Part shown: positions 23,276-62,767 of the stretch, one piece after another
How the letters are laid out: each line of letters starts with the position of its first letter
Position numbering within the stretch: the stretch's first letter is position 1
IMG/VR virus record: IMGVR_UViG_3300032092_000001
Strand: one strand, 5' to 3'
From: a virus
Lineage: Duplodnaviria; Caudoviricetes
Length of the DNA stretch: 64,000 nucleotides
Program-made: the position numbers and the translations under genes
Notes under the pieces: generated by a model
What the model was told of the DNA's origin: nothing
Seen by the model: the letters and a program-made list of their open reading frames with translations, nothing else
The model's database searches: none

Positions 23276-23642
23276 ATTTAAAGTAATAATTAAATATCTT
23301 ACAATCGGGACTTAAATTCATTAAGTCAGGAAACATAATATCCCCGATATCATTATTATCAATATGTGAGATATGTAATTCAGTGAAGTATTTCGCATAC
23401 TTCTCATATGTTTTCTTACCTCCAATACACCAATCCACATCTGTAATCTCTTTGTCTCTCTCATCAACAATTACCTCTCTATTATTTAGTTTTGGTAGGT
23501 TTGTTGACGTATTATAACCAACAAGTAATCTTTGGTTTAGTGTTTGTTTCACAAAATGTGACATATCTTGTTGGGATTTCCATAACAACTCATTGTTCAC
23601 TCCGATGTATCCCAAATTATTAACCGCAATAATTGATTTCAT
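23274..23642 (-). CDS. folA: dihydrofolate reductase (compact)
   Basis: IIAVN..GYIG..NELLW...D..HF, VG..T, IGG...Y motifs. Confidence 0.85.
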   Translation of the reverse strand: MKSIIAVNNLGYIGVNNELLWKSQQDMSHFVKQTLNQRLLVGYNTSTNLPKLNNREVIVDERDKEITDVDWCIGGKKTYEKYAKYFTELHISHIDNNDIGDIMFPDLMNLSPDCKIFNYYFK

Positions 23643-24664
23643 TATATTGTCTCCGCACTTTCTGAAAAGATTATTTCCCTAACCAAAGGACAATTCTGTT
23701 TAATATTGTTTTCAAAGAATATCTTGAAGAACTCTTTATCCACAAAACTTATCATCTGTTTTTTATACTGTAACTTAAAGTCTCCAACTTTTTCAAGAAC
23801 ATCAACTTTATTTACAACCAAATGAGTCACTCCATTAATGTTTGCAGCTTTAATTAAATCATCCAGGTTAGTCCAACCAATCTGTCTTGGTCTTCCTGTG
23901 GTTGACCCATATTCATTACCAACTTCTCTAATCATCTCAAATGTTCTACTTGGTTCCTCAAATTGCTTGGCTCCAACATACGTGTTATATGCTTTACATA
24001 CACCATAAACCTTTCTAATCTTTTGAGGTGGAACTCCATTAAGAACAGCACTTCCAATCGTACAATGTGATGATGTAACATATGGGTAATCCCCCCAATC
24101 AATATCAAGTTCAAACCCTTGAGCACCTTCAAACAAAATCTTTACATCATTTTTACCATGGAATTCCTCATAGATATCACAGACATATTGCTCAAGTAAT
24201 TCGGCGTTCTCAACTCTCACACCTTTACGATAATACTTATCACGATAAGCCGGTCCATTACCTGTTTTAGTCGTTCCAATCTCTTGGTCTTTGGAGTCCT
24301 CGGTTGTGTGTTCAGGTCGGATAATGTGAGCTCGTTTATCAATAAACAAATTACCCATAACTTCAATTCCATTTGCCTCAAGTTGTTGTATTTCATGGAA
24401 TAAACTAATCGGATTAACCACACAACCTGGTCCAATAATTGACTTAACACCGTTTACAATTCCCGATGGAATAAAATGTGTCACCATCTTTTTACCTTTC
24501 TTGTATATGGTGTGACCAGCATTACCACCACCATTATATCTCACAACATGTGTGTATTCATTTGGGATTTGACTTAAAGTATTACATACCTTACCTTTCC
24601 CTGTGTCCCCCGCTTGGAGGTCCACAATTACATCCGCATAATTAATCATACCCAATATTAACAA
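23642..24664 (-). CDS. purA: adenylosuccinate synthetase (short form)
   Basis: GDTGKGK, GGGNAGHT, EGAQG..LD, EYGSTTGRPR, NKVDVL. Confidence 0.95.
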   Translation of the reverse strand: MLILGMINYADVIVDLQAGDTGKGKVCNTLSQIPNEYTHVVRYNGGGNAGHTIYKKGKKMVTHFIPSGIVNGVKSIIGPGCVVNPISLFHEIQQLEANGIEVMGNLFIDKRAHIIRPEHTTEDSKDQEIGTTKTGNGPAYRDKYYRKGVRVENAELLEQYVCDIYEEFHGKNDVKILFEGAQGFELDIDWGDYPYVTSSHCTIGSAVLNGVPPQKIRKVYGVCKAYNTYVGAKQFEEPSRTFEMIREVGNEYGSTTGRPRQIGWTNLDDLIKAANINGVTHLVVNKVDVLEKVGDFKLQYKKQMISFVDKEFFKIFFENNIKQNCPLVREIIFSESAETI

Positions 24665-25682: not shown

Positions 25683-26114
25683 TTATTTTTCTTCCAACGA
25701 AAGAAGTCCTTTACCAAATTTATTTAGTCTATCATAATATCTTTCTTTAACATGTTGGTGAATTGGTATCGCCTTACCATCCCCGTCTATTCTAACAAAT
25801 GTTATAAATGTTTGTGTTACCGCATCTTGTTTACCAGTGTGGACGTTGTGTTTACGAACTTCAATATATAATTTAATTGACGTTGTTCCGAACTTCTCAA
25901 CTCTACCGTAGATTTTAAGTAAACTTCCAACTTTAACAGGACTCTTAAATAACAACTCGTCAATCTTGATTGTAACCATTCTTGGAGTGTCACATATCTG
26001 AGCGGCATATGAAGCAGCTGAATCATCAATCAATGACATTAAAGTCCCTCCAAAGATGTTTCCATGAACACCCTCGTCAGATTTTTTCATGATTGTTGTT
26101 GTTATAAGTTCCAT
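25683..26114 (-). CDS. acyl-CoA thioesterase (HotDog fold)
   Basis: HGNIFGGTLMSLIDDSAA, VEKFGTTS. Confidence 0.85.
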   Translation of the reverse strand: MELITTTIMKKSDEGVHGNIFGGTLMSLIDDSAASYAAQICDTPRMVTIKIDELLFKSPVKVGSLLKIYGRVEKFGTTSIKLYIEVRKHNVHTGKQDAVTQTFITFVRIDGDGKAIPIHQHVKERYYDRLNKFGKGLLSLEEK

Positions 26115-27133
26115 TACACCGTAGTCATTTTAAAATTAGTTTCCACCATGTTTACAGTACTAGATATTACTGACATGATTAAGTATGGATTACCATTTGA
26201 TGCTGGTCTTCTATCTTCAATATAACCTTTCCACCCTGAGTTAGCCGTAGTTTGTGGGACTCTGATTGATGCCCCTCTATCTGACACACCAAAACTAAAC
26301 TTATCAATTGATTGTGTCTCGTGTTGACCTGTTAATCTCATTTTATTGTCAGAACCATAGTTCTCAATATGTTTTGAATGGTTTTGCTCCATAGCAAAGA
26401 ACAACATATCAAAGTATGGTTTTCCTCCAACCTCTCTCATATATTTTGTTGAGAAATTTGTGTGTAACCCTGAACCGTTCCAATCACCTTGAAGCGGTTT
26501 TGGATGGTATTCAATTCTAACCTCATATGTCTCAGCAATTCTTTCTAAAAGATATCTACATAAAATCAATTGGTCGCAAGCATCCAATGTTCCTTTACCC
26601 ATTACTTGGAACTCCCATTGCCCAAGAGCAACTTCAGCATTAATACCAGTAACATTAAGTCCCGCAGCCAAACAAACATCCAAATGGTGTTCAACGATGT
26701 TACGACCTGAAACATTCTCAAATCCAATTCCACAATAATACTCACCTTGTCCCTTCATCAAACCTTTTTTATGTCCGAGAGGTAATTCACCATTGTAAAT
26801 AAAATACTCTTGCTCAAATCCAACCCACATATCTGAATCATCTTTAATCAATGAACGATGGTTTGTTGGGTGAGGTGTTGAATCGGGATTTAGAACTTCA
26901 CATAGGACCAAATAACCATTCTTCCTTTGTGGGTCTTTAATCATCTTAACAGGTTTCAAAAGACAATCAGAAAACTTCCCTTCAGCTTGCTTTGTTGATG
27001 ACCCATCAAAATTCCAAATTGGTAATGAATCAATTGTTAGTTCAGTTTCCGTGTTTAATACTTTGGTCTTACTTCGTAAATTCGGCTCGCTACCATATCC
27101 GTCAAGCCAAATGTATTCTAATTTGTGTATCAT
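26114..27133 (-). CDS. glnII: glutamine synthetase type II
   Basis: EYIWLDG, WNFDGSST, GFEQEY, NAEV..GQWEF, WNGSGLH, RLTG.HET, YIEDRRPASN. Confidence 0.95.
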   Translation of the reverse strand: MIHKLEYIWLDGYGSEPNLRSKTKVLNTETELTIDSLPIWNFDGSSTKQAEGKFSDCLLKPVKMIKDPQRKNGYLVLCEVLNPDSTPHPTNHRSLIKDDSDMWVGFEQEYFIYNGELPLGHKKGLMKGQGEYYCGIGFENVSGRNIVEHHLDVCLAAGLNVTGINAEVALGQWEFQVMGKGTLDACDQLILCRYLLERIAETYEVRIEYHPKPLQGDWNGSGLHTNFSTKYMREVGGKPYFDMLFFAMEQNHSKHIENYGSDNKMRLTGQHETQSIDKFSFGVSDRGASIRVPQTTANSGWKGYIEDRRPASNGNPYLIMSVISSTVNMVETNFKMTTV

Positions 27134-27660: not shown

Positions 27661-28545
27661 TTATTCAATGATTGTTGAAAGTTTTTTTAAATATTTCCCG
27701 TATGAATTCTTTGAGTATTTCTCGGCGTGTTTCTCTAACTGACTAACGTCAATCCACTCATTATTATACGCTATTTCTTCAATACAACCGACCATAAGAC
27801 CTTGTCTCTCTTGAATGGTCTCAACATATTGTCCTGCTTGGTTTAATGACTCAAATGTTCCCGTATCAAGCCAAGCTACACCTCTTGGTAACTTATATAC
27901 ACTCAACAACTCCCAATCTAAATAATGTTGAATAACATCTGTGATTTCAAGTTCACCTCTCTCGGATGGTTTAACATTATGTACAACTTTAACTACTGAA
28001 TTGTCAAAGAAATATAAACCTGGAACTGCATAGTTTGATTTTGGTTTCTTTGGTTTCTCCTGAATACCTGTGACATTCCCTTTCTTATCAAAAGACAACA
28101 CACCATATCTTTCAGGGTCATTAACCTGATAACCAAATATTAATGCACCAACAACTATTTCTTTACTCAATTTCTTAATCCGTTCTTTTACCTTATCGGT
28201 ATCAATACCATAGAATATATTGTCACCAAGAATTAAACAAACCGAATCATCACCAATGAATTTCTCACCGATTATAAATGCTTCAGCAAGTCCATTTGGT
28301 TTCTCCTGAATCTCATAACTTAAACTAATCCCCCACTGACTTCCATCACCCAATAGATTTTGGAACAATGGTTTATCTTGTGGCGTGGATATAATAAGAA
28401 TATCATTTATCTCCATTGACATCAATGTTGCTAATGGATAATAAATCATCGGTTTATCATACACAGGTAACAATTGTTTGGTTACCGATAATGTAAGTGG
28501 ATGTAATCTTGTCCCTGAACCTCCTGCAAGTATTATTCCTTTCAT
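27661..28545 (-). CDS. rmlA: glucose-1-phosphate thymidylyltransferase
   Basis: [51 protein letters not shown]. Confidence 0.97.
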
Positions 28546-28784: not shown

Positions 28785-29211
28785 ATTCTCCGATGAACTC
28801 TTGTTTCCACTGCGTTGGTTTTATTAATGATAAGAAAGTTTCCCCATTATTTCTACGATACAAGTAATATTTTTCACCAATGATGGGTTGGAAATTATAA
28901 TTTGCAGAATAAACCATCTGATTCCATTCAAATTCCTCAACCAATTTGTTATACTGTTCTTTTATTTCCTCATACTTCTTGTTGAAGTAATGGTTTGTCT
29001 TCAGTATCTTCTCGTTCTTCCAAGTTGATATGTTATCAGGAATAATCACAGGAGCCCCGACATTGGTTGCGTATGGAAGAAGGTGAGCATAATACCCACG
29101 CTCTTCACTCCAAACAACATTGTCAGGATATCTCTTTTTTTTTGGTGTGTCGTATGCCATCACGCTTGGTAAATCAGAATACTGACACCATAAATCATCA
29201 TTTTGTTCCAT
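28732..29211 (-). CDS. DUF2452-like protein
   Basis: LPYATNVGAP...F..KYEEIKEQY...YSANYNFQPIIGEKYYLY. Confidence 0.75.
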   Translation of the reverse strand: MEQNDDLWCQYSDLPSVMAYDTPKKKRYPDNVVWSEERGYYAHLLPYATNVGAPVIIPDNISTWKNEKILKTNHYFNKKYEEIKEQYNKLVEEFEWNQMVYSANYNFQPIIGEKYYLYRRNNGETFLSLIKPTQWKQEFIGEFELDSDNKWKKIEYGKQ

Positions 29212-30101
29212 TATAGAATACTTAAATATCTTTCACCTCTATCACATAAAAATGTAACAACAATACCCTCAGGTTTAGTTTCTTCAACATATCTCTCAGC
29301 AGCTAATATATTTGCACCTGCGGATATACCAACAAAAATACCCATCTCTTTGGATAATTGTCTTGCTCTTTCTTTCGCGTCCTCAGTTTTTATTCTAATA
29401 ATGTTATCAACAAATTTTAAATCAACCAAGAATTTACTACCGTCACCAATTCCTTGAATTCCGTGAATCCCTGGTTGTCCTCCGCTCATCACAGGTGATT
29501 CATCAGGCTCAACCGCAATAACTTCCATAGTTGGAAAGTCCTTCTTTAAAGTTAATCCCGCACCCATCAATGTCCCTCCTGTTCCAGTTCCTGTAATAAA
29601 CCCTGAAACCGATTCATCCATCACTCTAACTTGATTAATGATTTCCTTTGCGGTTGTTTCAATATGTGATTGAATGTTTAACTGACTATCAAACTGATTG
29701 CAGTTAAACCATCCGTTATTTTCTGATAGTTCGTTTCGTAATCTGATTGCCCCGTCAAAATCACCAGCGTCAACCTCAATAAGTTCAGCCCCGAACAAAC
29801 GTAACATTTGTTTTCTTTCCTCACTCATATTGGATGGCATAACAATCTTGCAATTATAACCTCTTTCAGATGCCAACCAAGCAAATGATATTCCCATATT
29901 ACCTGATGTTGCCTCAATAATGGTATCACCTTTTTTAAGTAATCCATTCATTTCAGCATCATTGATAATGTAAGAAGCGGGTCTGTCTTTAATTGAACCT
30001 GTCGGATTTAGTAATTCGGCTTTCGCGTAAATCTTGTCAGTAATTTTAATAAGTGGTGTGTTTCCTATATAATCTGATAATTTCATATTAGTGTGTTCCA
30101 T
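29211..30101 (-). CDS. cysK: cysteine synthase (PLP-dependent)
   Basis: IGNTPL, KAELLNPTGSIKDR, EATSGNMG, GTGTGGT, HGIQGIG, CDRGERYLS. Confidence 0.95.
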   Translation of the reverse strand: MEHTNMKLSDYIGNTPLIKITDKIYAKAELLNPTGSIKDRPASYIINDAEMNGLLKKGDTIIEATSGNMGISFAWLASERGYNCKIVMPSNMSEERKQMLRLFGAELIEVDAGDFDGAIRLRNELSENNGWFNCNQFDSQLNIQSHIETTAKEIINQVRVMDESVSGFITGTGTGGTLMGAGLTLKKDFPTMEVIAVEPDESPVMSGGQPGIHGIQGIGDGSKFLVDLKFVDNIIRIKTEDAKERARQLSKEMGIFVGISAGANILAAERYVEETKPEGIVVTFLCDRGERYLSIL

Positions 30102-34040: not shown

Positions 34041-34481
34041 TTAGTGAAGAATCAAATATAATAGACCTAAATTAATAGCAACTGAACCAATTGCAATACC
34101 TCTCCATTTTTTCTTTTTGTCAGATTGTTTCTCTAACTTGTCTTTGGTTTTGGCATGTTCAATTACCTCGTTGTTATACTTTTCTCGTATTCTATTCGCC
34201 TCACTTTCCATATCAGTGAATAACTTATTCATATCAGCATTAGCCTTCTGTTCAGCCTTCAACTGATTATCACAATTATCTTTATAGATGTACAACTGCT
34301 CAATCTCTTTCTTCTGAGCCTTTTCAGTTTTGATAATTGTTAATAACAATAACTCTTGTGATTTACTGAAGAACACTCCTGTGTCACCTTCATATACTAT
34401 TCTATGGGGCTTCAAAACTTGACCAAACGCTGTCACGTTGAGCAAGATTAAGCTTACCAAGATTACTAATTTCTTTAGCAT
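34041..34481 (-). CDS. signal peptide + coiled coil + C-terminal TM protein (spanin-like)
   Basis: MLKKLVILVSLILLNVTAFGQ; C-terminal GIAIGSVAINLGLLYLILH. Confidence 0.5.
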   Translation of the reverse strand: MLKKLVILVSLILLNVTAFGQVLKPHRIVYEGDTGVFFSKSQELLLLTIIKTEKAQKKEIEQLYIYKDNCDNQLKAEQKANADMNKLFTDMESEANRIREKYNNEVIEHAKTKDKLEKQSDKKKKWRGIAIGSVAINLGLLYLILH

Positions 34482-34728
34482 TTTCTTCCTTGATGTATTT
34501 GATTTTAGTGATTACCTCACCTTGTTTATTATCGTATGCAATTCTTAAATCGGTCATTTGTTTGTTTAAACTATCAACCTGTGAACGAAGAGCATTTATT
34601 TTTGTCCCATCTTCCAATGTTACAGTAATTGGTTCACGATTTAATAAGATACCTACATAGATACCCATAGAAATAACAATAACACCTAATAGAATTTGAG
34701 ACCAGTATTTACTTAAAATATCTTTCAT
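34402..34728 (-). CDS. N-terminal TM + coiled-coil protein (i-spanin-like)
   Basis: Overlaps the next gene by 80 nt; TATTTAT upstream. Confidence 0.5.
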   Translation of the reverse strand: MKDILSKYWSQILLGVIVISMGIYVGILLNREPITVTLEDGTKINALRSQVDSLNKQMTDLRIAYDNKQGEVITKIKYIKEENAKEISNLGKLNLAQRDSVWSSFEAP

Positions 34729-34740
34729 ACTGATAAATAC

Positions 34741-34950
34741 TCACATCTTACTAATTGAGACGTAAGTATTTTTCCACCAACCAAAAATTTCATCTTTGAA
34801 TTCTTTCTCAGGTTTGAAGTCACCCATGTTAATTAAGACATCATCATGAAAAGATTCATTTGGGAATCTCATCTTCACTCTCGTCTTCTCTGACACATTG
34901 TTCAGCAAGTTTTTTTCCATATTCAACATTCCTTGTAAACGGATTATCAT
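34741..34950 (-). CDS. hypothetical protein
   Basis: ORF; real start likely downstream. Confidence 0.45.
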   Translation of the reverse strand: MIIRLQGMLNMEKNLLNNVSEKTRVKMRFPNESFHDDVLINMGDFKPEKEFKDEIFGWWKNTYVSISKM

Positions 34951-35083
34951 AACATAAGTCTTCGTTGTCCTTATAAACTGCCCACCACCATTTCTGTGGA
35001 CCCATCTGTTCTACACGAAGAATGTAATTCTTATATAAAGCAATGAAATCATTCTTATCTTGTTCTTTCCACTCCATTTCCAT
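34856..35083 (-). CDS. hypothetical protein
   Basis: ORF. Confidence 0.55.
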   Translation of the reverse strand: MEMEWKEQDKNDFIALYKNYILRVEQMGPQKWWWAVYKDNEDLCYDNPFTRNVEYGKKLAEQCVREDESEDEIPK

Positions 35084-35432
35084 ACTTGTCAGTTATCTCG
35101 TCGTTATTGTCTATGTAGAAGGCTATATCACCAATCTTTGGTTTCTTATTAGTATAATACATCACACCATTCTCAGCAACAACTTGCCATTTTGGTGTAT
35201 TCTTTTCATCTGATTTCTCAACACTTTGAACTCTAATCGGCCAAGGTTTACCTTGTATTTGTTCAACAACTAAACTATCAAACTCGGTTGGTTCCTCAAT
35301 GTTTTTTTGGATTTTAAGTTCCTGTTTTGGAGTTATTGGTTTAATCTTGGGTTCACTTGAAATTATTAGTACTGACGTTAATATTAATAAAGTCACTCCA
35401 ACAATAAAAAATGTCTTATCTGTTTTATCCAT
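35055..35432 (-). CDS. membrane-anchored hypothetical protein
   Basis: N-terminal TM; TATATTTG at 35437-35444. Confidence 0.7.
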   Translation of the reverse strand: MDKTDKTFFIVGVTLLILTSVLIISSEPKIKPITPKQELKIQKNIEEPTEFDSLVVEQIQGKPWPIRVQSVEKSDEKNTPKWQVVAENGVMYYTNKKPKIGDIAFYIDNNDEITDKYGNGVERTR

Positions 35433-35447
35433 AATACAAATATATAA

Positions 35448-35477
35448 TAAAAAACCCAGTTTTTCAACTGGGTTCTT
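35448..35477 (-). terminator. terminator closing the kinase operon
   Basis: AACCCAG...CTGGGTT hairpin. Confidence 0.7.
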
Positions 35478-35484
35478 AATTTAT

Positions 35485-35991
35485 TTAGAAGTTCTCATCT
35501 TCTTTATTTGTTTCATCATCTGTCAATGGTTCCTCGTATGGTAACAGCTCTTCATATGGTAGTGGTTCCTCAACAACAGGTTCAGGTGCCGGTTCTTGTC
35601 TTACGATAATAATTGGTTCTTGTGGAGGTCTTGGAGTTGTTGGGTATTCCGCAACATTAGATAAACTATTTCCATCTTCCTCGTCAACCTTTTGGATTAA
35701 CATCTTATCTCTATCTTCAGAGTTGAACCAATAGTCAACAACTTTATTAAGGTTACCAACGAAAGCTCCGAATAAAATTAATAACATTTCTTTCCAGTTC
35801 TCAGCAATTTCAATTTGGAACATAACCGCCATATTGATACCAAAAATTATAAAGAAAAACAAGAACAATACAATCCCTGTAATCTTCCATCTATTAGACT
35901 GCATTTGTTGCAACATATAATAGAAACGATTTTTATCTTCCACCTTCACATAAGGGGTTTCACCAAATAACATTCTTTTTAATCTACTCAT
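35485..35991 (-). CDS. two-TM holin-like protein with a Pro/Glu-rich tail
   Basis: LLILFGAFVGNLNKVVDYWFNS resembles 3TM-holin motifs. Confidence 0.5.
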   Translation of the reverse strand: MSRLKRMLFGETPYVKVEDKNRFYYMLQQMQSNRWKITGIVLFLFFFIIFGINMAVMFQIEIAENWKEMLLILFGAFVGNLNKVVDYWFNSEDRDKMLIQKVDEEDGNSLSNVAEYPTTPRPPQEPIIIVRQEPAPEPVVEEPLPYEELLPYEEPLTDDETNKEDENF

Positions 35992-36008
35992 TTTTTTATT
36001 TTTTATTT

Positions 36009-36695
36009 TTATTTATCATCTTTGTTAGGTGTTGCACCATATTTCACCCCAAGTATTGTTCCCACGATACTGAAACTATTTGTTAACAGAATACCGAACA
36101 TATTACTCCAAGTGGAGCCGATAATATCTGTATCCATTCCTATTGTCATAGAATAAACATATATTCCAGTAGTTATGGTTCCAACACCAATGATTACATA
36201 AAGAGCAACTCTAACAATATTATTAATTAACTCAAACTGAGTTTTCTTCTGTATCACATCTAAATTGTTTTCAGCTTCGTTTTTAGCATTTTCCGCAGTT
36301 ATTCTAGCTTGTTCTGATTTAACCATTTCCTGTTGGAGCTCATCTGTCAATCTTAAATTCTCCTGTTTCCATTCATTTAGTTCTCTGTTTTGAACTTCAA
36401 CTGTTAGTTTTGACTCCTCAACATTTTTTAATGTCTCTTGGAGTTCTTCCATCATTCTTTGGTTTTCATCGTTGAGTGTGGTTAAATCTTTGTTTTGAAC
36501 CTGAACTTGTTTGGTTATTTCTAAACGTTTCCGTCTTGATGATATATCTTTTTCAATACAAGTTTTAAGATACTCTTTAAACTCTTCGTCATTTTGAGCA
36601 TCTATTAATTTAGTAATGTTACCTTCAAGACCAATGTTCTTGGTCTTCAAAGTTTCAATTAATATCTTCTTTGTATCTTTATCTAAAACAATCAT
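36009..36695 (-). CDS. coiled-coil protein with two C-terminal TMs
   Basis: Long heptad region then two hydrophobic helices; coupled to the receiver gene. Confidence 0.7.
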   Translation of the reverse strand: MIVLDKDTKKILIETLKTKNIGLEGNITKLIDAQNDEEFKEYLKTCIEKDISSRRKRLEITKQVQVQNKDLTTLNDENQRMMEELQETLKNVEESKLTVEVQNRELNEWKQENLRLTDELQQEMVKSEQARITAENAKNEAENNLDVIQKKTQFELINNIVRVALYVIIGVGTITTGIYVYSMTIGMDTDIIGSTWSNMFGILLTNSFSIVGTILGVKYGATPNKDDK

Positions 36696-37123
36696 TTATA
36701 AACTTTGAATGGCGCGGTTCTGTTTTTATATCCTTCGTAATCTTTTCTAAACTCTTCTAATCTTGGTTCAATATCATCTGACTTAATAATCCAAAACTGA
36801 GCACCTGCTTGAATGGCTTTAGCTTGTTCTTCAGGTTCGTTGCTTGAAGATATAATACCAATAACCACATGGTTACCATATTCAAAATTAACCTTACGGA
36901 TAAGTTCAATACCATCAAATGATGAACCGATAATGTTTAAATCAACAAACACACACTCAGGTTTTCCGTCTGAATTTTTTTGCCAATCAGCAAATAATTT
37001 AGCCGCCTCGTCAGAACTATTTAAACTCTTTAATGACAATGTAATGTCTAACAAGGAGCAACTGTCCTCAAAAACCAAGTGGAACAAATCCTCATCATCC
37101 ACTAACAAAATTGAATCAATCAT
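36692..37123 (-). CDS. stand-alone response regulator receiver (CheY-like)
   Basis: ILLVDDED, VFVDLNI..DGIEL, IISSS, AGAQFWIIKS. Confidence 0.9.
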   Translation of the reverse strand: MIDSILLVDDEDLFHLVFEDSCSLLDITLSLKSLNSSDEAAKLFADWQKNSDGKPECVFVDLNIIGSSFDGIELIRKVNFEYGNHVVIGIISSSNEPEEQAKAIQAGAQFWIIKSDDIEPRLEEFRKDYEGYKNRTAPFKVYK

Positions 37124-37132
37124 GTTTTTTCT

Positions 37133-38722
37133 TTATTTTATTTTTATTTTCATTTTAGTACCAATCTCATTTTTCTCACAAGTAATTTGAAACCCGTGTT
37201 CTTCCAAAATTGCAACACAAATATTTAACCCTAACCCTGTACCAGATTCTTTCTGACCTTCCTTTCTTGTATAAGGTTTACATAGGTGATTAAAATCTTC
37301 TTGAGTAATACCTCTACCATTATCTTGTACGATAATTGAATTATCTTCAGAATATATTTTAACAAACTTTGTTTCAGAGTCGTTATACTTTAAACCATTT
37401 CTAATTAAGTTATCTACCGCAGTACAGAACAATGCCTCGTTAACTTCAATCGTCGGTAGGTTATCATCTAACATTACTTGACTGATATAAGCAGTAGCGG
37501 ACAAATAGTCCTTGAGTATGTCCTTGATGTTACATTCAGCTTTATTCAATACAACATCTTTCTTAACAAGATTGGTGAACTCATAAACACCTTTATAAAC
37601 TTTTTGTGAATGTTTAAGTCCCTCCTTAATCATTTTAAGTGGACCTTCAATTTTAAGATTTGTAATGTCTTCACTTGTTATTCTTCGTTCTAAAGAACTT
37701 AACCCTCTTGGTATATATGTGTTAATACCAGAGTGCATGTCGTGTCTTAATATTTTAGCAGCATGTTCTAAATATGTATTTTTCTTCTCAATCTCTTTCT
37801 TTTGTTCGTAAGATTGAGTGATGTCTGTCGCAATTTTCATAATACGATAAATCTTATCGTCAGTACCAATAATAGGATTGTAAGTTGCTTGTAAATAAAC
37901 TAAAGAACCATCTTTTTTAACTCTAGTGATTTCACCTGTAAATAATATACCTTCTCTTAATTTTTCCCAAAAAAGAATATACTCATCACTTTTTGAATGT
38001 TTTTCATCTATAAAAATTCTATGGTGTTTTCCGGCAAGTTCATCCTGTTCAGAATATCCCATAGTTTCTAAAAATAAATTATTAGCGAAAATGATGTTAC
38101 CATCTAAATCAAACTCAATAACTGCATTAGATTTGTTTATAGCGTTCATTCTGTTACGAATTTCAACTTCCTTTTTCTTAAGCTCAGTAATGTCTTGTCT
38201 GATAGACGAGAAACCATCTAATTTCCCATCAGTACCGAATCTTGCCCTGATGTATGTGTCAACATAATATAAACTACCGTCTTTAGCTTTATTAGTCACA
38301 ACATCATTCCATATCTCACCCTTCATAACCGTTTCATACATCTTCCCCCAATACCCATCAGGTTGTGTCCCCGAATTAACTATTGAGTGGTCTTTACCAA
38401 TTACTTCTTCAAGTTTCCACCCTGACACTTTTTCAAACTTATCATTAACATAAGTTATTTTACCTTTTCTATCAGTAACCGATATAATTGCCGCCCTATC
38501 AATGAACTTATCCGTATCATTAAGTTTTTTACTTTGAACATTATTAATTTCACGAACTATTAAAATAAAAAGTGGTATGAATAATATAAAACAAGCATAC
38601 TCAACACCTCTTGTAAATCTTGTCGACTCCTGTATCTCTAATAAAACTGATGTTTTAATGAAAAAGAAAACAGACATTATTATGATTGATAGAAGTAAAT
38701 AGATTTTTGTACTTTTTGTCAT
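37133..38722 (-). CDS. membrane PAS-PAS sensor histidine kinase
   Basis: Two N-terminal TMs; two PAS/PAC domains; H-box ILRHDMHS; N-box NLIRNGLKYN; DNGRGI; GTGLGL. Confidence 0.92.
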   Translation of the reverse strand: MTKSTKIYLLLSIIIMSVFFFIKTSVLLEIQESTRFTRGVEYACFILFIPLFILIVREINNVQSKKLNDTDKFIDRAAIISVTDRKGKITYVNDKFEKVSGWKLEEVIGKDHSIVNSGTQPDGYWGKMYETVMKGEIWNDVVTNKAKDGSLYYVDTYIRARFGTDGKLDGFSSIRQDITELKKKEVEIRNRMNAINKSNAVIEFDLDGNIIFANNLFLETMGYSEQDELAGKHHRIFIDEKHSKSDEYILFWEKLREGILFTGEITRVKKDGSLVYLQATYNPIIGTDDKIYRIMKIATDITQSYEQKKEIEKKNTYLEHAAKILRHDMHSGINTYIPRGLSSLERRITSEDITNLKIEGPLKMIKEGLKHSQKVYKGVYEFTNLVKKDVVLNKAECNIKDILKDYLSATAYISQVMLDDNLPTIEVNEALFCTAVDNLIRNGLKYNDSETKFVKIYSEDNSIIVQDNGRGITQEDFNHLCKPYTRKEGQKESGTGLGLNICVAILEEHGFQITCEKNEIGTKMKIKIK

Positions 38723-38746
38723 ATTTCATAAATACCTGAAACAAAC

Positions 38747-38773
38747 AAAAAACCCCTCTAATTTGAGGGGTTT
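38747..38773 (-). terminator. intrinsic terminator
   Basis: AAACCCTC...GAGGGGTTT. Confidence 0.7.
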
Positions 38774-38777
38774 AACA

Positions 38778-39104
38778 TTAATACAAATCTTCAGAAAAAA
38801 GTCCGATTCTCGGATTATATAGTTTGTCGTATTCTACTTGACCAGCGTCAATTGCCAACCTCATTGATTCAAACCTGTCGTAGAATTTACCTTTATTTGA
38901 AAGGAATCCCTGTTCGTAATCTCCAACGGAATCAGGTCCCTTAACAACACTTCGTAACTGACCAAGTGTTTTCATTATGTCAATACAATGTCCGTGTCTG
39001 TGTCCACAAACAACCACTCCCTTATCAAGGTTCTTTGGTAGGAATGTTTGTGTCGGCAACTCTTTATACCATATCGCCGCACAGATGATATACTCGTTAG
39101 TCAT
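38778..39104 (-). CDS. hypothetical phage protein
   Basis: ICAAIWY, VVCGHRHGHC, QGFL..KGKFYDR. Confidence 0.7.
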   Translation of the reverse strand: MTNEYIICAAIWYKELPTQTFLPKNLDKGVVVCGHRHGHCIDIMKTLGQLRSVVKGPDSVGDYEQGFLSNKGKFYDRFESMRLAIDAGQVEYDKLYNPRIGLFSEDLY

Positions 39105-41032: not shown

Positions 41033-41233
41033 TCATAGTATTTTTGCGTATTTAATTATCTCATATGTCTCAGTATAACCCATTCCATTATTGTCTTCTT
41101 CAACAATATCAAAGTCAACTTTATTACCACTATTCATTTCATCCAATTCACTTTTTGGGTGTACTGGTATGATTTCATTGTTTTTAGTTTCAACGAACCA
41201 ACCCTTTGTTGTTTTATATAGTTTACCTGTCAT
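41033..41233 (-). CDS. hypothetical protein
   Basis: 66-aa ORF. Confidence 0.55.
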   Translation of the reverse strand: MTGKLYKTTKGWFVETKNNEIIPVHPKSELDEMNSGNKVDFDIVEEDNNGMGYTETYEIIKYAKIL

Positions 41234-42027
41234 TATGATAGATATTTTGACATATTAATCGCCGCAGTTCTTGCGTCTGACCAATTTTTAATCATATGTT
41301 TTCCTCGTTTGTTGAATGGTATTACTGATTTGATTCCATCATTATAAATGTGTTTTCTATCAAAATCGTCACCTTTCTTATATGACTTGGTGTATTTTTT
41401 CCACCATTTTTTAAACTCCTTTTCATTGTAATCTTTAACGACAGGGTTATACTCCTCATCAAAAATTCTATCACCTATTTTGAATAGACCTCCACCACGA
41501 TGAGTGTAACCATAATAACCTTCAATATTATCATTCTCAATCTGTTCAATCACAAAGGGGTCAAAATCATCTTTAACAGTATTAGCGTTAGTTATAAAAA
41601 TATTTGGTTCATAAGTTTTTAACTTGATTGCAACTCCGTTAGGGTATTCCTTACAAACATAAAGATTGTTAGTATAATACCACCAAGCCCTATCAATACT
41701 ACCAATATATTTACCGTCTTTGGTTAAGAAAGATTCCTCCAAAACAAATTCATCATTGTCACCCCACTTGTGAATTCCAATAATACCACCAGTGTATTTC
41801 TTAATCAGTTCAATCTTCTTGGGGTCAATATTTGAGTGACCTGTCATAACCTGATTTGGTATGAACCTAGTCACCAATTTGGTGAACCCTAAATTAAGGT
41901 GAACTTTATTTAATTTACCGTCCATACTACTTGAATAGTGCGGATGTTTCTCAAACTTCAATATCATCTTACCGAGATATGGAGTTCTGTTTTTAATCAG
42001 TTTTTCAATCATATTATTTATCAGCAT
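41233..42027 (-). CDS. hypothetical protein
   Basis: YYGYTHRGG..FKIGD..FDE motif. Confidence 0.7.
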   Translation of the reverse strand: MLINNMIEKLIKNRTPYLGKMILKFEKHPHYSSSMDGKLNKVHLNLGFTKLVTRFIPNQVMTGHSNIDPKKIELIKKYTGGIIGIHKWGDNDEFVLEESFLTKDGKYIGSIDRAWWYYTNNLYVCKEYPNGVAIKLKTYEPNIFITNANTVKDDFDPFVIEQIENDNIEGYYGYTHRGGGLFKIGDRIFDEEYNPVVKDYNEKEFKKWWKKYTKSYKKGDDFDRKHIYNDGIKSVIPFNKRGKHMIKNWSDARTAAINMSKYLS

Positions 42028-53293: not shown

Positions 53294-55156
53294 TTATCCT
53301 TTTACTTCTTCAAAATCAACATCAGACACATTTACTTCTTCAGTTTGATTTTCAGGAGATTGTTGTGAATATAATTTTTCAGATATCTTTTGAAACACAA
53401 CATTAACGTTATCCATCTTGGTTTTAATGTCATCCACATTTTTTGTAGAATGGGCCGACTTTAATTCGTCAATTGCAGTGGTAACTTCAGTTTTTTCTTC
53501 CTCAGACAATTTATCTTCCATATCTTTCACTGTCTTTTCAACTTGGAAGATTAGACCGTCCGCCTGATTGATAACCTCAGCATCTTCTTTCGCCTTCTTA
53601 TCAACATCAGCATTTGCTTCAGCTTCTTGTTTCATTCTTTCAATTTCTTCTTTTGAAAGTCCTGATGATGCCTCAATACGAATGTTCTGTTGTTTGTTGG
53701 TCCCTTTGTCCAATGCTGATACATTAATAATACCATTGGCATCAATATCAAATGTCACCTCAACTTGTGGAACACCTCTCATCGCCGGTGGAATACCATC
53801 CAAGTGGAAACGACCAATTGTTCTATTGTCTTTTGACATTGCTCTTTCACCTTGTAATACGTGGATTTCAACTGATGGTTGGTTATCAACTGCGGTTGAG
53901 AATACCTGTGACTTCTTGGTTGGAATTGTTGTGTTAGCTTCAATCAACTTTGTGAACACACCACCCATTGTTTCAATACCAAGTGATAGTGGAGTAACAT
54001 CCAACAACAATACATCTTTCACATCACCTGCTAATACTCCCGCTTGGATTGCCGCGCCTAATGCAACTACCTCATCAGGGTTAACACCTTTTGATGGGTC
54101 CTTACCGAAGAACTTCTTAACCGCTTCCTGAATTGCAGGAATACGTGTTGTACCTCCAACCAAGATTATTTCATCAATGTCAGATGTTTTAAGTCCCGCA
54201 CTTTTAAGAGCCGACTCACAAGGTTTAATAGTTCTTTGAACCAAACTATCAACAAGTTGTTCAAACTTCGCCTTAGTCAAATTACGAACCAAGTGTTTTG
54301 GGACACCATCAACTGGCATAATGTATGGAAGGTTAATCTCTGTTGAAGGTGAAGATGATAATTCAATCTTCGCTTTCTCAGCCCCTTCACGTAGACGTTG
54401 TAATGCCATTGGGTCTTTGGTCAAGTCCAATCCATTCTCGTCCTTAAATTCTTTAACCAACCAATCAACGATAACATTGTCAAAGTCATCACCTCCAAGG
54501 TGTGTGTCACCATCAGTAGATAATACTTCAAATACACCATCACCCAATTCCAAAATAGATACGTCGTGAGTTCCACCACCACAGTCAAACACAACAATCT
54601 TCATATCTTTAGATTGTTTATCCAAACCATATGCAAGAGCTGCCGCAGTTGGTTCATTAACAATTCTCATTACCTTCAATCCCGCAATCTCACCGGCCTC
54701 TTTTGTTGCCTGACGTTGAGCGTCGTTGAAGTATGCCGGTACCGTAATAACTGCTTCGGTAACTTCAGAACCCAGATAGTCTTCAGCAGTTTGTTTCATC
54801 TTTTGTAAAACCATTGCCGAAACTTCTTGTGGAGAATACTCCTTACCGTCAATCTCAACACGTGGAGTTCCTTTACTATTTACCACTTTGTAGGGAACTC
54901 TATTTACTTCACTTTTACTTTCATCAAATCCAGTTCCCATAAAACGTTTAATAGATGAAATTGTTTTTTCAGGGTTGGTCACCGCCTGACGTTTTGCCGG
55001 GTCACCAATCTTTCTCTCACCACCATTGATAAATGCAACAATTGAAGGGGTGGTTCTCTTTCCTTCACTGTTTGTAATCACAACTGGTTCGTTACCTTCC
55101 ATTACGGCAACACACGAATTAGTTGTTCCAAGGTCAATTCCTATAATTTTTCCCAT
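53294..55156 (-). CDS. dnaK: Hsp70 chaperone DnaK
   Basis: [50 protein letters not shown]. Confidence 0.98.
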
Positions 55157-61154: not shown

Positions 61155-61751
61155 TTATTTTATATCAGTTGTTTCAATTAATGTATATGTAAAACGATTT
61201 CCGTGAATATCTCTTGCCTTACGACAAATCTTCATAAACTCTTCAAAGTCCGCAGCCTTCTTAAACACCTGACATCCTTCAGACCAATTCTCAACATATG
61301 TTGAATCAGCTCCCGCCTTGTGAATATTAATACCATAAACACCTTCAGTGATTTTCTTCTCATCATAAATCATATCCTTGTTAGCGTCACGATAAACTTT
61401 AACAGGTTTGTCCTGTCCTAAAGCTTCGTACTTACCCTGATGTAATCTGATGATATGTGAACCACGATATTGTCCCTCAACCAAACGAGCAACACCATCT
61501 TTGTTGTGGTATTCCATCACACCCTTCTTACCTGGGTCAGTCGTTGCCGGCCAAACGTGACACTTCCATTCCCCATTCTCTTTGTAAGAAATTGTTATAT
61601 AATCATCAAAAGCGTTTGTAACCTTTTGTCCAGTTTCTGCGTTTCTGATTCCAACGATATTAACATCGTAACCTTTATTCTTATCATCGTTGAACCAAAC
61701 ATAACCTTTAGATTCTACAGATTTTTTAATTTGTTCTAATGTGTAACTCAT
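61155..61751 (-). CDS. putative cell-wall enzyme with an L,D-transpeptidase-like His/Cys motif (endolysin candidate)
   Basis: YGINIHKAG...WSEGCQV; TATTTATA at 61764-61771; start revised to MSYTLEQ. Confidence 0.6.
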   Translation of the reverse strand: MSYTLEQIKKSVESKGYVWFNDDKNKGYDVNIVGIRNAETGQKVTNAFDDYITISYKENGEWKCHVWPATTDPGKKGVMEYHNKDGVARLVEGQYRGSHIIRLHQGKYEALGQDKPVKVYRDANKDMIYDEKKITEGVYGINIHKAGADSTYVENWSEGCQVFKKAADFEEFMKICRKARDIHGNRFTYTLIETTDIK

Positions 61752-61781
61752 AATTTTTTTTATTATAAATATCATTTAAAT

Positions 61782-62090: not shown

Positions 62091-62095
62091 TTTTG

Positions 62096-62177
62096 TGGGA
62101 GTAGGAGGACTCGAACCTCCGAAACCAATAGGTGAAAGATTTACAGTCTTTTGCAATTGCCACTATGCGATACTCCC
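62096..62177 (-). tRNA. tRNA-Tyr(GTA)
   Basis: AAAGA-CTGTAAA-TCTTT; long variable arm. Confidence 0.92.
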
Positions 62178-62178
62178 C

Positions 62179-62253
62179 TGGTAGTCGGTAGGGGATTCGA
62201 ACCCCTATGACAAGAATGAAAATCTTGTATCCTAACCCTTAGATGAACCGACC
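62179..62253 (-). tRNA. tRNA-Glu(TTC), CCA encoded
   Basis: CAAGA-TTTTCAT-TCTTG; ends ACCA. Confidence 0.92.
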
Positions 62254-62257
62254 ATAG

Positions 62258-62331
62258 TTGCGGGGACAGGATTCGAACCTGCGACCTTTAGGTTATGAGC
62301 CTAACGAGCTGACCATCTGCTCTACCCCACG
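62258..62331 (-). tRNA. tRNA-Met(CAT), initiator-like
   Basis: C1:A72 mismatch; TTAGG-CTCATAA-CCTAA. Confidence 0.88.
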
Positions 62332-62419: not shown

Positions 62420-62767
62420 TTATTTGACTAAAATCTGAACCATCAAAATTGAGAACGCCAAGATTAAACAAATAATGGTTTTTAGTGTTAGTGGTTCTTT
62501 AAAAATCACATAACTAAAATAGGTAAAAACAATTGCCCCAATTGAAAACCCTATCAATCTTGACGGCCACATCTGACCGTTAAAGGCTATCACCATATTC
62601 TTAACTGAATACATAAATAACATTGATATCGGAATCCCCATCAATACAATCAACCAATAGTTATTTTTAAACCATTCGTATTTTAATTGTCCTTGAAGTT
62701 GAAAGAATGTTAGGGTTTGTGCTAACATACCAAATATGATACCTATTAGTAGTTTTTCCCTATCCAT
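62420..62767 (-). CDS. four-TM small membrane protein (SMR/DMT-like)
   Basis: Four hydrophobic helices. Confidence 0.65.
   Translation of the reverse strand: MDREKLLIGIIFGMLAQTLTFFQLQGQLKYEWFKNNYWLIVLMGIPISMLFMYSVKNMVIAFNGQMWPSRLIGFSIGAIVFTYFSYVIFKEPLTLKTIICLILAFSILMVQILVK

Follow-up and report, generated by a model that had tools for sequence, protein, structure and literature searches.

Lysis timing in phages is classically explained by the accumulation of the holin, with a few refinements by antiholins. Phage-borne sensors that inform a decision in the life cycle are known as well and include VqmA of VP882, the arbitrium pair AimR/AimP and the agr genes of phiCDHM1. Such phage-borne sensing systems have been summarized in an overview (PMC7790227). 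On the cellular side, the two-component system LytSR, which acts with LrgAB/CidAB in staphylococci and Bacillus, is thought to respond to the energetic state of the membrane (PMC5717393, PMC2996381). In the literature, including a comparative review of jumbo phages (PMC7824862), we found no phage two-component system located in a lysis cassette. Here we describe a four-gene operon at positions 35485-38722 of a 64,000-nucleotide stretch of DNA from a Caudoviricetes virus (IMG/VR record IMGVR_UViG_3300032092_000001; the whole stretch is hereafter called the window). Its four consecutive open reading frames on the minus strand encode, in this order, a sensor histidine kinase, a stand-alone receiver, a coiled-coil protein with a transmembrane (TM) hairpin (CC) and a further protein with two TM helices (TM2).

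A preliminary description of this DNA reported a phage-borne two-component system, and this observation is largely right. We propose that with this operon the phage carries a His-Asp phosphorelay of its own, which acts through a protein contact at the membrane instead of through transcription and bears on lysis timing. From the sequence evidence assembled here, we regard the chances of this proposal being correct as about even. The output is assigned to protein contact because the receiver carries no output domain, a complete related genome contains no second receiver and CC is coupled to the receiver. The earlier suggestion that signalling is post-translational was right in outline, as the design is receiver-only and without a DNA-binding domain.

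Results

A complete kinase-receiver pair without DNA-binding output

The four genes are separated by 9, -4 and 17 nt and lie between a TATTTAT element and a terminator-like hairpin, exactly where they had been placed before (Table 1). The stop codon of the receiver gene overlaps the start of the CC gene as ATGA. Response_reg is the only Pfam match of the receiver, with 33.8 bits against a cut-off of 30.2. Among 36 unique receiver sequences D9, D10, the phospho-acceptor D61, S92-94 and K114 are invariant, and the mean column identity reaches 92%; the ratio of nonsynonymous to synonymous substitution rates (dN/dS) is 0.02-0.06, as under strong purifying selection. The regulator had been described as receiver-only with its phospho-acceptor aspartate in place, and both parts of this description hold.

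We searched four related phage records over their whole length and found no second receiver able to carry a DNA-binding domain. Each record encodes one receiver in an open frame of 148-162 amino acids (aa), which is therefore too short for an added output domain. One of these genomes (G001; 304,365 bp, rated 100% complete) contains exactly one receiver and one kinase. The other three are partial (203-254 kb) and hold one receiver each and also one kinase each, except for G004 with two. The regulator lacks a DNA-binding output, as had been stated, and its counterpart is the sole receiver in each of the four records. We infer that the kinase transfers its phosphoryl group to D61 of the receiver.

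CC is the probable output of the phosphorelay

The third gene product had been described as a coiled-coil protein with two TM segments, and its AlphaFold2 model is in agreement with this. In the model (predicted local distance difference test, pLDDT, 82) a small N-terminal cap is followed by a single helix (residues 37-185) that continues into the first TM segment, and a second helix (residues 190-220) forms the other arm of the TM hairpin. Conservation of CC is bipartite: the N-domain (residues 1-68) and the near-invariant C-terminal hairpin are conserved, and the coiled coil between them is variable and partly deletable. Folded alone, the N-domain of about 70 aa reached a pLDDT of 93.6. It has no significant match in Pfam, PHROG or NCBIfam, and a fold search with it gave a generic helical protein as best PDB match (Z 6.2) and no convincing structural relative. 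Full-length CC has no PDB fold match at E up to 0.001. In Atlas, CC matches unnamed viral clusters only, and the hairpin alone has no usable named match there.

A profile of the N-domain identified 194 clusters among 1.84 billion representatives, and in almost all of the 150 clusters listed the domain begins within the first few residues. In five full-length clusters (P0276, P0281, P0283, P0329 and P0335) the N-domain and coiled coil are positioned ahead of HisKA/HATPase_c, which replaces the TM hairpin. Three others (P0336, P0273 and P0304) were left out because their C-terminal parts are unrelated and probably stem from read-through or chimeric gene calls. One such fusion of the N-domain with a kinase is encoded directly after a receiver gene (L097:5432-6481, plus strand), which suggests a second kinase regulated by the receiver; over 125 residues it shares 39% identity with CC (E 3e-19). 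As the N-domain precedes either a hairpin or a kinase core, it is a portable input module for different signalling outputs.

Co-folding of the receiver with the membrane proteins had been suggested as a check, and with CC(1-158) it gave a weakly positive result. The score was 0.46 compared to 0.00 for the best control, with 100% contact agreement among the runs and a partner pLDDT of at least 86. For comparison, the mark was reached by 58 of 80 complexes of solved structure and by two of 110 mismatched pairs, and at scores up to 0.60 by just seven of the 80 complexes together with both passing mismatches; these counts hold only roughly, since our own alignments were used. The models hence weakly suggest a contact between receiver and CC.

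Two other roles of CC were considered and rejected. An Hpt-like phosphorelay protein is not compatible with the lack of an invariant histidine in 38 CC sequences. A spanin was dismissed as well, since the coiled coil is N-terminal and there is no signal peptide, which places the coiled coil in the cytoplasm. To judge from conservation and gene context, the output of the phosphorelay is probably CC, the third gene product, which is a better supported effector than TM2, the fourth.

Alternatively, the receiver could act on host targets, for example as a phosphate sink or as a decoy for host kinases or regulators, and CC would merely serve as an anchor or scaffold. The high column identity of the receiver, compared to an identity of 50-97% for CC, is as expected if the receiver has partners beyond CC. 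Moreover, receiver and CC types do not co-vary: in two loci (L025 and L053) the receiver is 97% identical to that of the window and CC only 64-69%. However, this would require a host partner that stays conserved among phages ranging from 32 to 66% GC. The fusion of the N-domain to either a kinase core or a hairpin marks it as an input domain and not as an anchor, and it is the hairpin itself, not just the N-domain, that is near-invariant. We consider an action on host targets highly improbable and retain CC as the probable output.

Kinase, receiver and CC are conserved as a unit among lysis genes

A scan of IMG/VR with the kinase yielded 75 loci on contigs of up to 304 kb, and a scan of species genomes with a receiver profile yielded five contigs binned into metagenome-assembled genomes (MAGs) of five phyla with 39-66% GC. 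The order kinase-receiver-CC is kept in every IMG/VR locus that is long enough to show it (68 of the 75 include receiver and CC). On four of the five MAG contigs the receiver is followed by a CC-type gene, and the fifth (L098) ends inside the receiver. The best-covered MAG locus with a CC N-domain is L097, where the kinase fusion takes the place of CC. In most cases the receiver stop overlaps the CC start or is located a few nucleotides from it, including a GTGA overlap in the contig of 66% GC. On this arrangement, CC is translationally coupled to the receiver across the family. Compared to the proteins of the window, those of the 75 loci show identities of 86-97% (receiver), 74-91% (kinase) and 50-97% (CC).

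A survey of synteny had been proposed as a further check, and it placed the trio among lysis genes in most relatives. A wall hydrolase or Pfam holin is present in the fetched flanks of 58 of the 75 loci and at most 150 nt from the module in 45; among the 48 loci whose two flanks each extend over 2 kb or more, the corresponding numbers are 38 and 28. These counts refer to a panel of the enzymes found, which comprises no M15 peptidase. In 21 loci, including the complete G001, a PG_binding_1+GH19 gene directly follows CC on the same strand with gaps of about 10-16 nt and is therefore co-transcribed with the trio. Elsewhere, PG_binding_1+GH19 is divergent and located ahead of the kinase. In six loci a run of genes for a small protein with two TM helices, a GH24 lysozyme, a PG_binding-linked hydrolase and Phage_holin_4_1 ends immediately before the kinase start. 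Further neighbours are PG_binding_1+Amidase_2, GH108 and a 200-aa hydrolase with a PHROG endolysin match. In L053 an M15 peptidase, identified via annotated phage homologues, is encoded beside the same small two-TM gene; a PDB sequence search with this peptidase gave nothing useful. Altogether, at least six non-orthologous lysin types are swapped around an unchanged trio, on varying sides and strands. In the classes of L025 and L012, kinase and CC are the sole membrane proteins near the lysins.

The link to lysis draws its weight from this recurrent swapping, in which type, side and strand of the lysin all vary. The preliminary description had already supposed that the phage tunes lysis timing. 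The synteny of the relatives is strongly in favour of this part, but the better supported effector gene is not the one chosen there and the window has no endolysin adjacent to the operon.

Other genes also adjoin the module. Several relatives place dnaK directly before the kinase or soon after CC (L003:4039-5928, L008:4174-6024 and L012:9552-11411), and in some the neighbours are topoisomerase genes.

The module could instead control a membrane or physiological state apart from lysis timing, such as host energisation, superinfection exclusion or envelope remodelling, and share an inherited accessory region with the lysins. The absence of adjacent lysins from L073, L032-36, the distant MAG loci and the window itself would fit such a role, and so would the dnaK or topoisomerase genes beside the module in some relatives. 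Furthermore, the hairpin is extremely conserved over a range of 32-66% in host GC, which points to a host target that is itself conserved. Nevertheless, the exchange of lysins beside the unchanged trio is hard to explain by one inherited arrangement. The co-transcription of GH19 directly after CC and the Pfam holin gene that ends immediately before the kinase start also speak against a function apart from lysis, which we regard as unlikely. A bearing of the phosphorelay on lysis timing is the reading that we pursue below.

The family is abundant in freshwater metagenomes, with more than 5,000 CC homologues found, and all sequencing runs containing the DNA are DNA metagenomes labelled as lake, freshwater or similar. 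Among 50,697 deposited phage genomes, the region gave no match by megablast and CC none by tblastn, and the kinase gave only partial PAS matches by tblastn. This absence from the deposited genomes is the reason why the family has escaped study.

The kinase is predicted to sense a cytoplasmic signal

The kinase had been described as a membrane-anchored protein with two PAS domains and all catalytic boxes, which is in line with our analysis. Its TM helices (residues 3-31 and 36-63) are separated by a loop of only four residues; therefore, there is no periplasmic sensor. Pfam identified two PAS domains (PAS1, about 79-182; PAS2, about 200-303) and HATPase_c (E 2e-16). The DHp histidine is H327, followed by the N box (438-447), G1 (467), F (477) and G2 (near 496), and residues 308-521 align to HK853 in a PDB sequence search. 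The Pfam HisKA model has no match in the kinase, the DHp of which is therefore divergent. We preferred the start that gives 529 aa over that of the public records (514 aa), because relatives conserve the 15 additional N-terminal residues, with which the first TM helix is complete.

PAS1 has PDB matches over the full domain length to MmoS (3ewk, E 7e-30), Aer (8dik, E 7e-17) and NifL (2gj3, E 1e-11), and the NifL family model matches residues 74-196 (E 3e-31). By sequence, PAS1 belongs to the flavin-type PAS clade, whose members bind flavin adenine dinucleotide (FAD). Sensing of the redox or energy state is plausible because the FAD-binding PAS domains of MmoS, Aer and NifL are the closest to PAS1. 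The earlier suggestion that the phage senses the redox or energy state of its host is plausible to the same extent, with flavin binding as a prediction from the domain match.

The sensor end varies among relatives, which show the architectures TM-PAS-PAS, TM-GAF-PAS-PAS, GAF-PAS-PAS without TM, TM-PAS and PAS-PAS without TM. In many of them a secreted coiled-coil protein of 200 aa is inserted between kinase and receiver, for example together with a second kinase in L002:7587-9511 (plus strand). This second kinase combines a signal peptide, a coiled-coil domain on the outside and a single TM helix with the DHp/CA core of the first. The outside parts of both proteins match no Pfam family. Together, the second kinase and the 200-aa protein may feed a periplasmic signal into the same receiver. 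In two loci (L004:9530-10252 and L061:3518-4240, both plus strand) a gene of 240 aa is located between the second kinase and the receiver; its GIY-YIG-like N-terminus, which resembles homing endonucleases, was recognised by eye.

TM2 is a lineage-restricted membrane protein

Based on a VVDYWF motif, the last gene had been called holin-like, and this assignment was not borne out. The N-terminus of TM2 is basic (+5); it is followed by two hydrophobic helices, the second of which is weak, and by an acidic tail rich in proline and glutamate. No Pfam family was found at E up to 0.1 and no holin in NCBIfam. TM2 has a weak match to a PHROG of unknown function (phrog_38564, E 2e-4), and its best named match in Atlas, DUF6450, is within noise (0.77). 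All of its 2479 metagenomic homologues are without annotation. The dN/dS of 0.06-0.15 identifies TM2 as a real gene under purifying selection.

One explanation is that TM2 is the holin and that the receiver, possibly with CC, tunes it to set the time of lysis. TM2 is co-transcribed with the two-component genes and under purifying selection, and its basic N-terminus and two-helix layout of the N-in/C-in type resemble class II holins. In L028, moreover, CC and the GH19 endolysin are the immediate neighbours of TM2, one on either side; other loci with TM2 have three intervening genes. Holin C-terminal tails, however, are usually basic, and that of TM2 has a net charge of -17. In addition to the missing holin match and the weakly hydrophobic second helix, TM2 occurs in only about 20 of the 75 loci, and the trio persists without it. 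In lineages without TM2 the lysins are adjoined by Phage_holin_4_1, a two-TM gene of 72-80 aa or a one-TM gene of 83 aa. The window has no lysin in the TM2 operon or its flanks. We judge TM2 a distinctly improbable target of the receiver, and CC remains the preferred one. TM2 appears to be a co-transcribed, lineage-specific membrane accessory that may act as a holin or antiholin within its own lineage.

The TATTTAT element is a general promoter class of the phage

Two classes of promoter-like motifs are present in the window and in G001, TAnnTTTG and TATTTAT(A). TAnnTTTG is the -7 element of the Bacteroidota sigma-A. It precedes many small, early-looking genes and thereby points to a Bacteroidota host; its frequent position 4-5 nt before the ATG implies leaderless transcripts. 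In G001, TATTTAT is sharply placed at -11 to -13 or -20 to -23 before about 110 genes. These comprise the terminase, the baseplate operon, tail sheath neighbours, tail genes and many large unannotated genes, and also the operons of a DnaB-like helicase and the DNA polymerase. By sequence, the motif could not be split into middle and late subclasses, as replication genes did not differ clearly from structural genes in this respect.

Read as its reverse complement, TATTTAT(A) (TATTTATA) corresponds to the late element of T4, TATAAATA. A late promoter of the T4 type, with TATAAATA before late genes only, was rejected since the orientation is reversed and replication operons are included. The element ahead of the kinase had been called a late-type promoter, which does not agree with its position before helicase and polymerase operons as well as before terminase and tail genes. 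On the distribution in G001, TATTTAT is a general non-host promoter class of the phage, which argues against host-type early expression of the operon and is not evidence of late expression. A better argument for late expression would be the co-transcription of an endolysin with the trio in many relatives.

Upstream of the first terminator-like hairpin lies a gene of the T4_Y16D family (38778-39104). The gene after the operon has its own TAnnTTTG element and is therefore a separate transcription unit. In the region we counted nine terminator-like sites compared to 1.6 expected from shuffled sequence.

The window phage and its candidate lysis genes

The genome of the window phage, which is of freshwater origin, is probably about 285 kb in size, as a JGI contig of 284,559 bp encodes an identical CC protein. 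It is a large phage that encodes DnaK, an Rnl1-type RNA ligase, thymidylate synthase and six tRNAs. The best matches of its DnaK (53294-55156, minus strand, 15 kb from the operon) are in uncultured phages of 480-735 kb and in Lak phages.

A spanin-like gene pair had been noted 0.8 kb from the operon, and we found it at a distance of 757 nt. The 108-aa protein has an N-terminal TM helix (residues 9-31), and the 146-aa partner has a signal peptide and a C-terminal TM helix; the signal peptide contains no cysteine and hence no o-spanin lipobox. In L001, L005 and L059 the spanin-like pair follows GH19 directly or within about 280 nt. The window is colinear with L073, and GH19, which is located between a 69-aa gene and the spanin-like pair in L001 (4976-5809) and L059, is cleanly absent from both; in the window (34728-34741) the flanking genes are 12 nt apart.

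A candidate endolysin is encoded 22 kb from the operon (Table 1). A PDB sequence search with this 206-aa hydrolase candidate gave nothing useful; by eye, its His...Ser-x-Gly-Cys pattern may be YkuD-like. Nearby, 62420-62767 (minus strand) encodes a homologue of a protein with four TM helices that follows CC in other lineages. The genes at 61155-61775 and 62420-62767, which flank a tRNA cluster (62095-62331), may be the actual pair of lysin and membrane partner of this phage.

Table 1. Position of the operon, its boundaries and further lysis-related features in the window.
Feature	Position	Strand	Evidence or remark
Terminator-like hairpin, ends upstream transcript	38750-38773	-	9-bp stem, 5 GC pairs, T-run
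TATTTAT (motif A), promoter-like	38728-38734	-	12 nt ahead of kinase ATG
Sensor histidine kinase, 529 aa	37133-38722	-	Pfam, PDB matches, boxes, TM helices
Stand-alone receiver, 143 aa	36692-37123	-	Pfam Response_reg
CC, 228 aa, coiled coil and TM hairpin, proposed effector	36009-36695	-	Alignment, AlphaFold2 model
TM2, 168 aa, lineage-restricted accessory two-TM protein	35485-35991	-	Helix prediction, relatives
Terminator-like hairpin, closes operon after TM2	35450-35477	-	12-bp stem
Next gene, 125 aa, N-terminal TM	35055-35432	-	Own host-type TAnnTTTG element
Overlapping spanin-like pair	34402-34728 (108 aa), 34041-34481 (146 aa)	-	80-nt overlap, TATTTAT at -11
Candidate endolysin	61155-61775	-	tblastn 63-71% identity to relatives' kinase-abutting wall hydrolase; phrog_33083 E 3e-12

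Several other genes of the window were noted. The gene at the window start (28-396) had been regarded as GAF-like, for which we found no Pfam match. The 340-aa product of 23642-24664 (minus strand) matches phrog_1211, '2-aminooxy adenylosuccinate synthetase' (E 5e-72); it may be PurZ-like, in which case the phage might replace adenine with 2-aminoadenine, or it may be an ordinary PurA. The precomputed Pfam labels of 26114-27133, 27661-28545, 29211-30101 and 41233-42027 (all minus strand) are glutamine synthetase-like, NTP_transferase, PALP and Tad6, respectively, which points to metabolic and possible anti-defence functions.

Discussion

In the mechanism that we propose, the membrane-anchored kinase would read a cytoplasmic signal via PAS1, most likely the redox or respiratory state of the host, and phosphorylate D61 of the receiver. 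The receiver would then dock on the N-domain of CC, and the signal would run along the long helix of CC into the near-invariant TM hairpin as the effector. Most likely the hairpin would advance or delay the permeabilisation of the membrane, either as a regulated holin or as an antiholin-like timing element. We assign it a role in the timing of permeabilisation because the trio resides in the lysis cassette of this phage group.

Several points weigh against this mechanism. The window and L073 have no endolysin in or beside the operon, and the nearest candidate of the window is 22 kb away. In 17 of the 75 loci no lysin of the panel was found in the flanks, although at least one of them (L053) has the M15 peptidase, and the five distant MAG-binned loci likewise gave no neighbouring lysin of the panel. 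Moreover, the loci are related and their counts are not independent, so that co-location could reflect an inherited order of the modules. Where a Pfam holin or a small two-TM gene adjoins the lysin, CC is not required as the holin. The CC hairpin is conserved far above usual holins, which is more in keeping with a conserved partner than with a self-assembling hole, and co-folding speaks only weakly for the contact between receiver and CC.

In a broader sense, CC might be the first representative of a new class of lysis effectors gated by phosphorylation, in which a relay sets permeabilisation through a receiver-binding CC N-domain and the sensors are swappable (flavin-type PAS, GAF or a periplasmic second kinase). 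The gene arrangements of the relatives allow this generalisation, which we put forward tentatively and with some doubt. If it is true, the phage would compute the moment of lysis instead of following a simple holin clock. A phosphorelay in a lysis cassette would likewise be a different kind of control, with exchangeable sensors and a near-invariant receiver wired to a membrane effector, and a large phage could time its burst by the redox state of the host, by a ligand or by the state of the envelope. The N-domain of CC would then represent a new compact domain that partners with receivers.

The nearest functional analogue is LytSR, which likewise couples two-component signalling to holin/antiholin-like membrane proteins and to murein hydrolase activity. 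However, LytSR is cellular, and LytR uses a LytTR DNA-binding domain, whereas the receiver described here has no output domain. LytS is a sensor with multiple TM helices in contrast to the two-TM anchor with cytoplasmic PAS-PAS of our kinase, and CC and TM2 are unrelated to LrgA/CidA. A regulation of the LytSR type was considered and rejected, as the 143-aa receiver lacks LytTR and the four related records hold single receivers of 148-162 aa.

Lysis inhibition in T4 (holin T, antiholins RI and RIII) and in N4 (bioRxiv 10.1101/2025.11.12.688109) is similar in that a phage-encoded, signal-dependent delay acts on membrane proteins of the cassette. It differs from the proposed phosphorelay as it involves no kinase and no phosphorylation, the T4 signal is bound directly in the periplasm and there is no sequence relation.

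With CheY-FliM, DivK, Spo0F and CpdR our receiver shares the receiver-only design, the full phospho-acceptor pocket and an output only by protein binding. In contrast to these single-domain regulators, the proposed partner here is the CC N-domain, which belongs to no described family, and the system is viral and located in a lysis cassette. PAS1 aligns over its whole length with MmoS, NifL and Aer. Here, however, flavin binding is predicted, and the input is not fixed, since relatives swap or add sensors by gain of GAF, loss of PAS or TM, or a second periplasmic kinase. VqmA, arbitrium and the agr genes of phages are one-component systems or partial agr sets which act on transcription and on the choice between lysis and lysogeny, whereas the operon described here encodes a complete kinase-receiver pair with a proposed output at the membrane.

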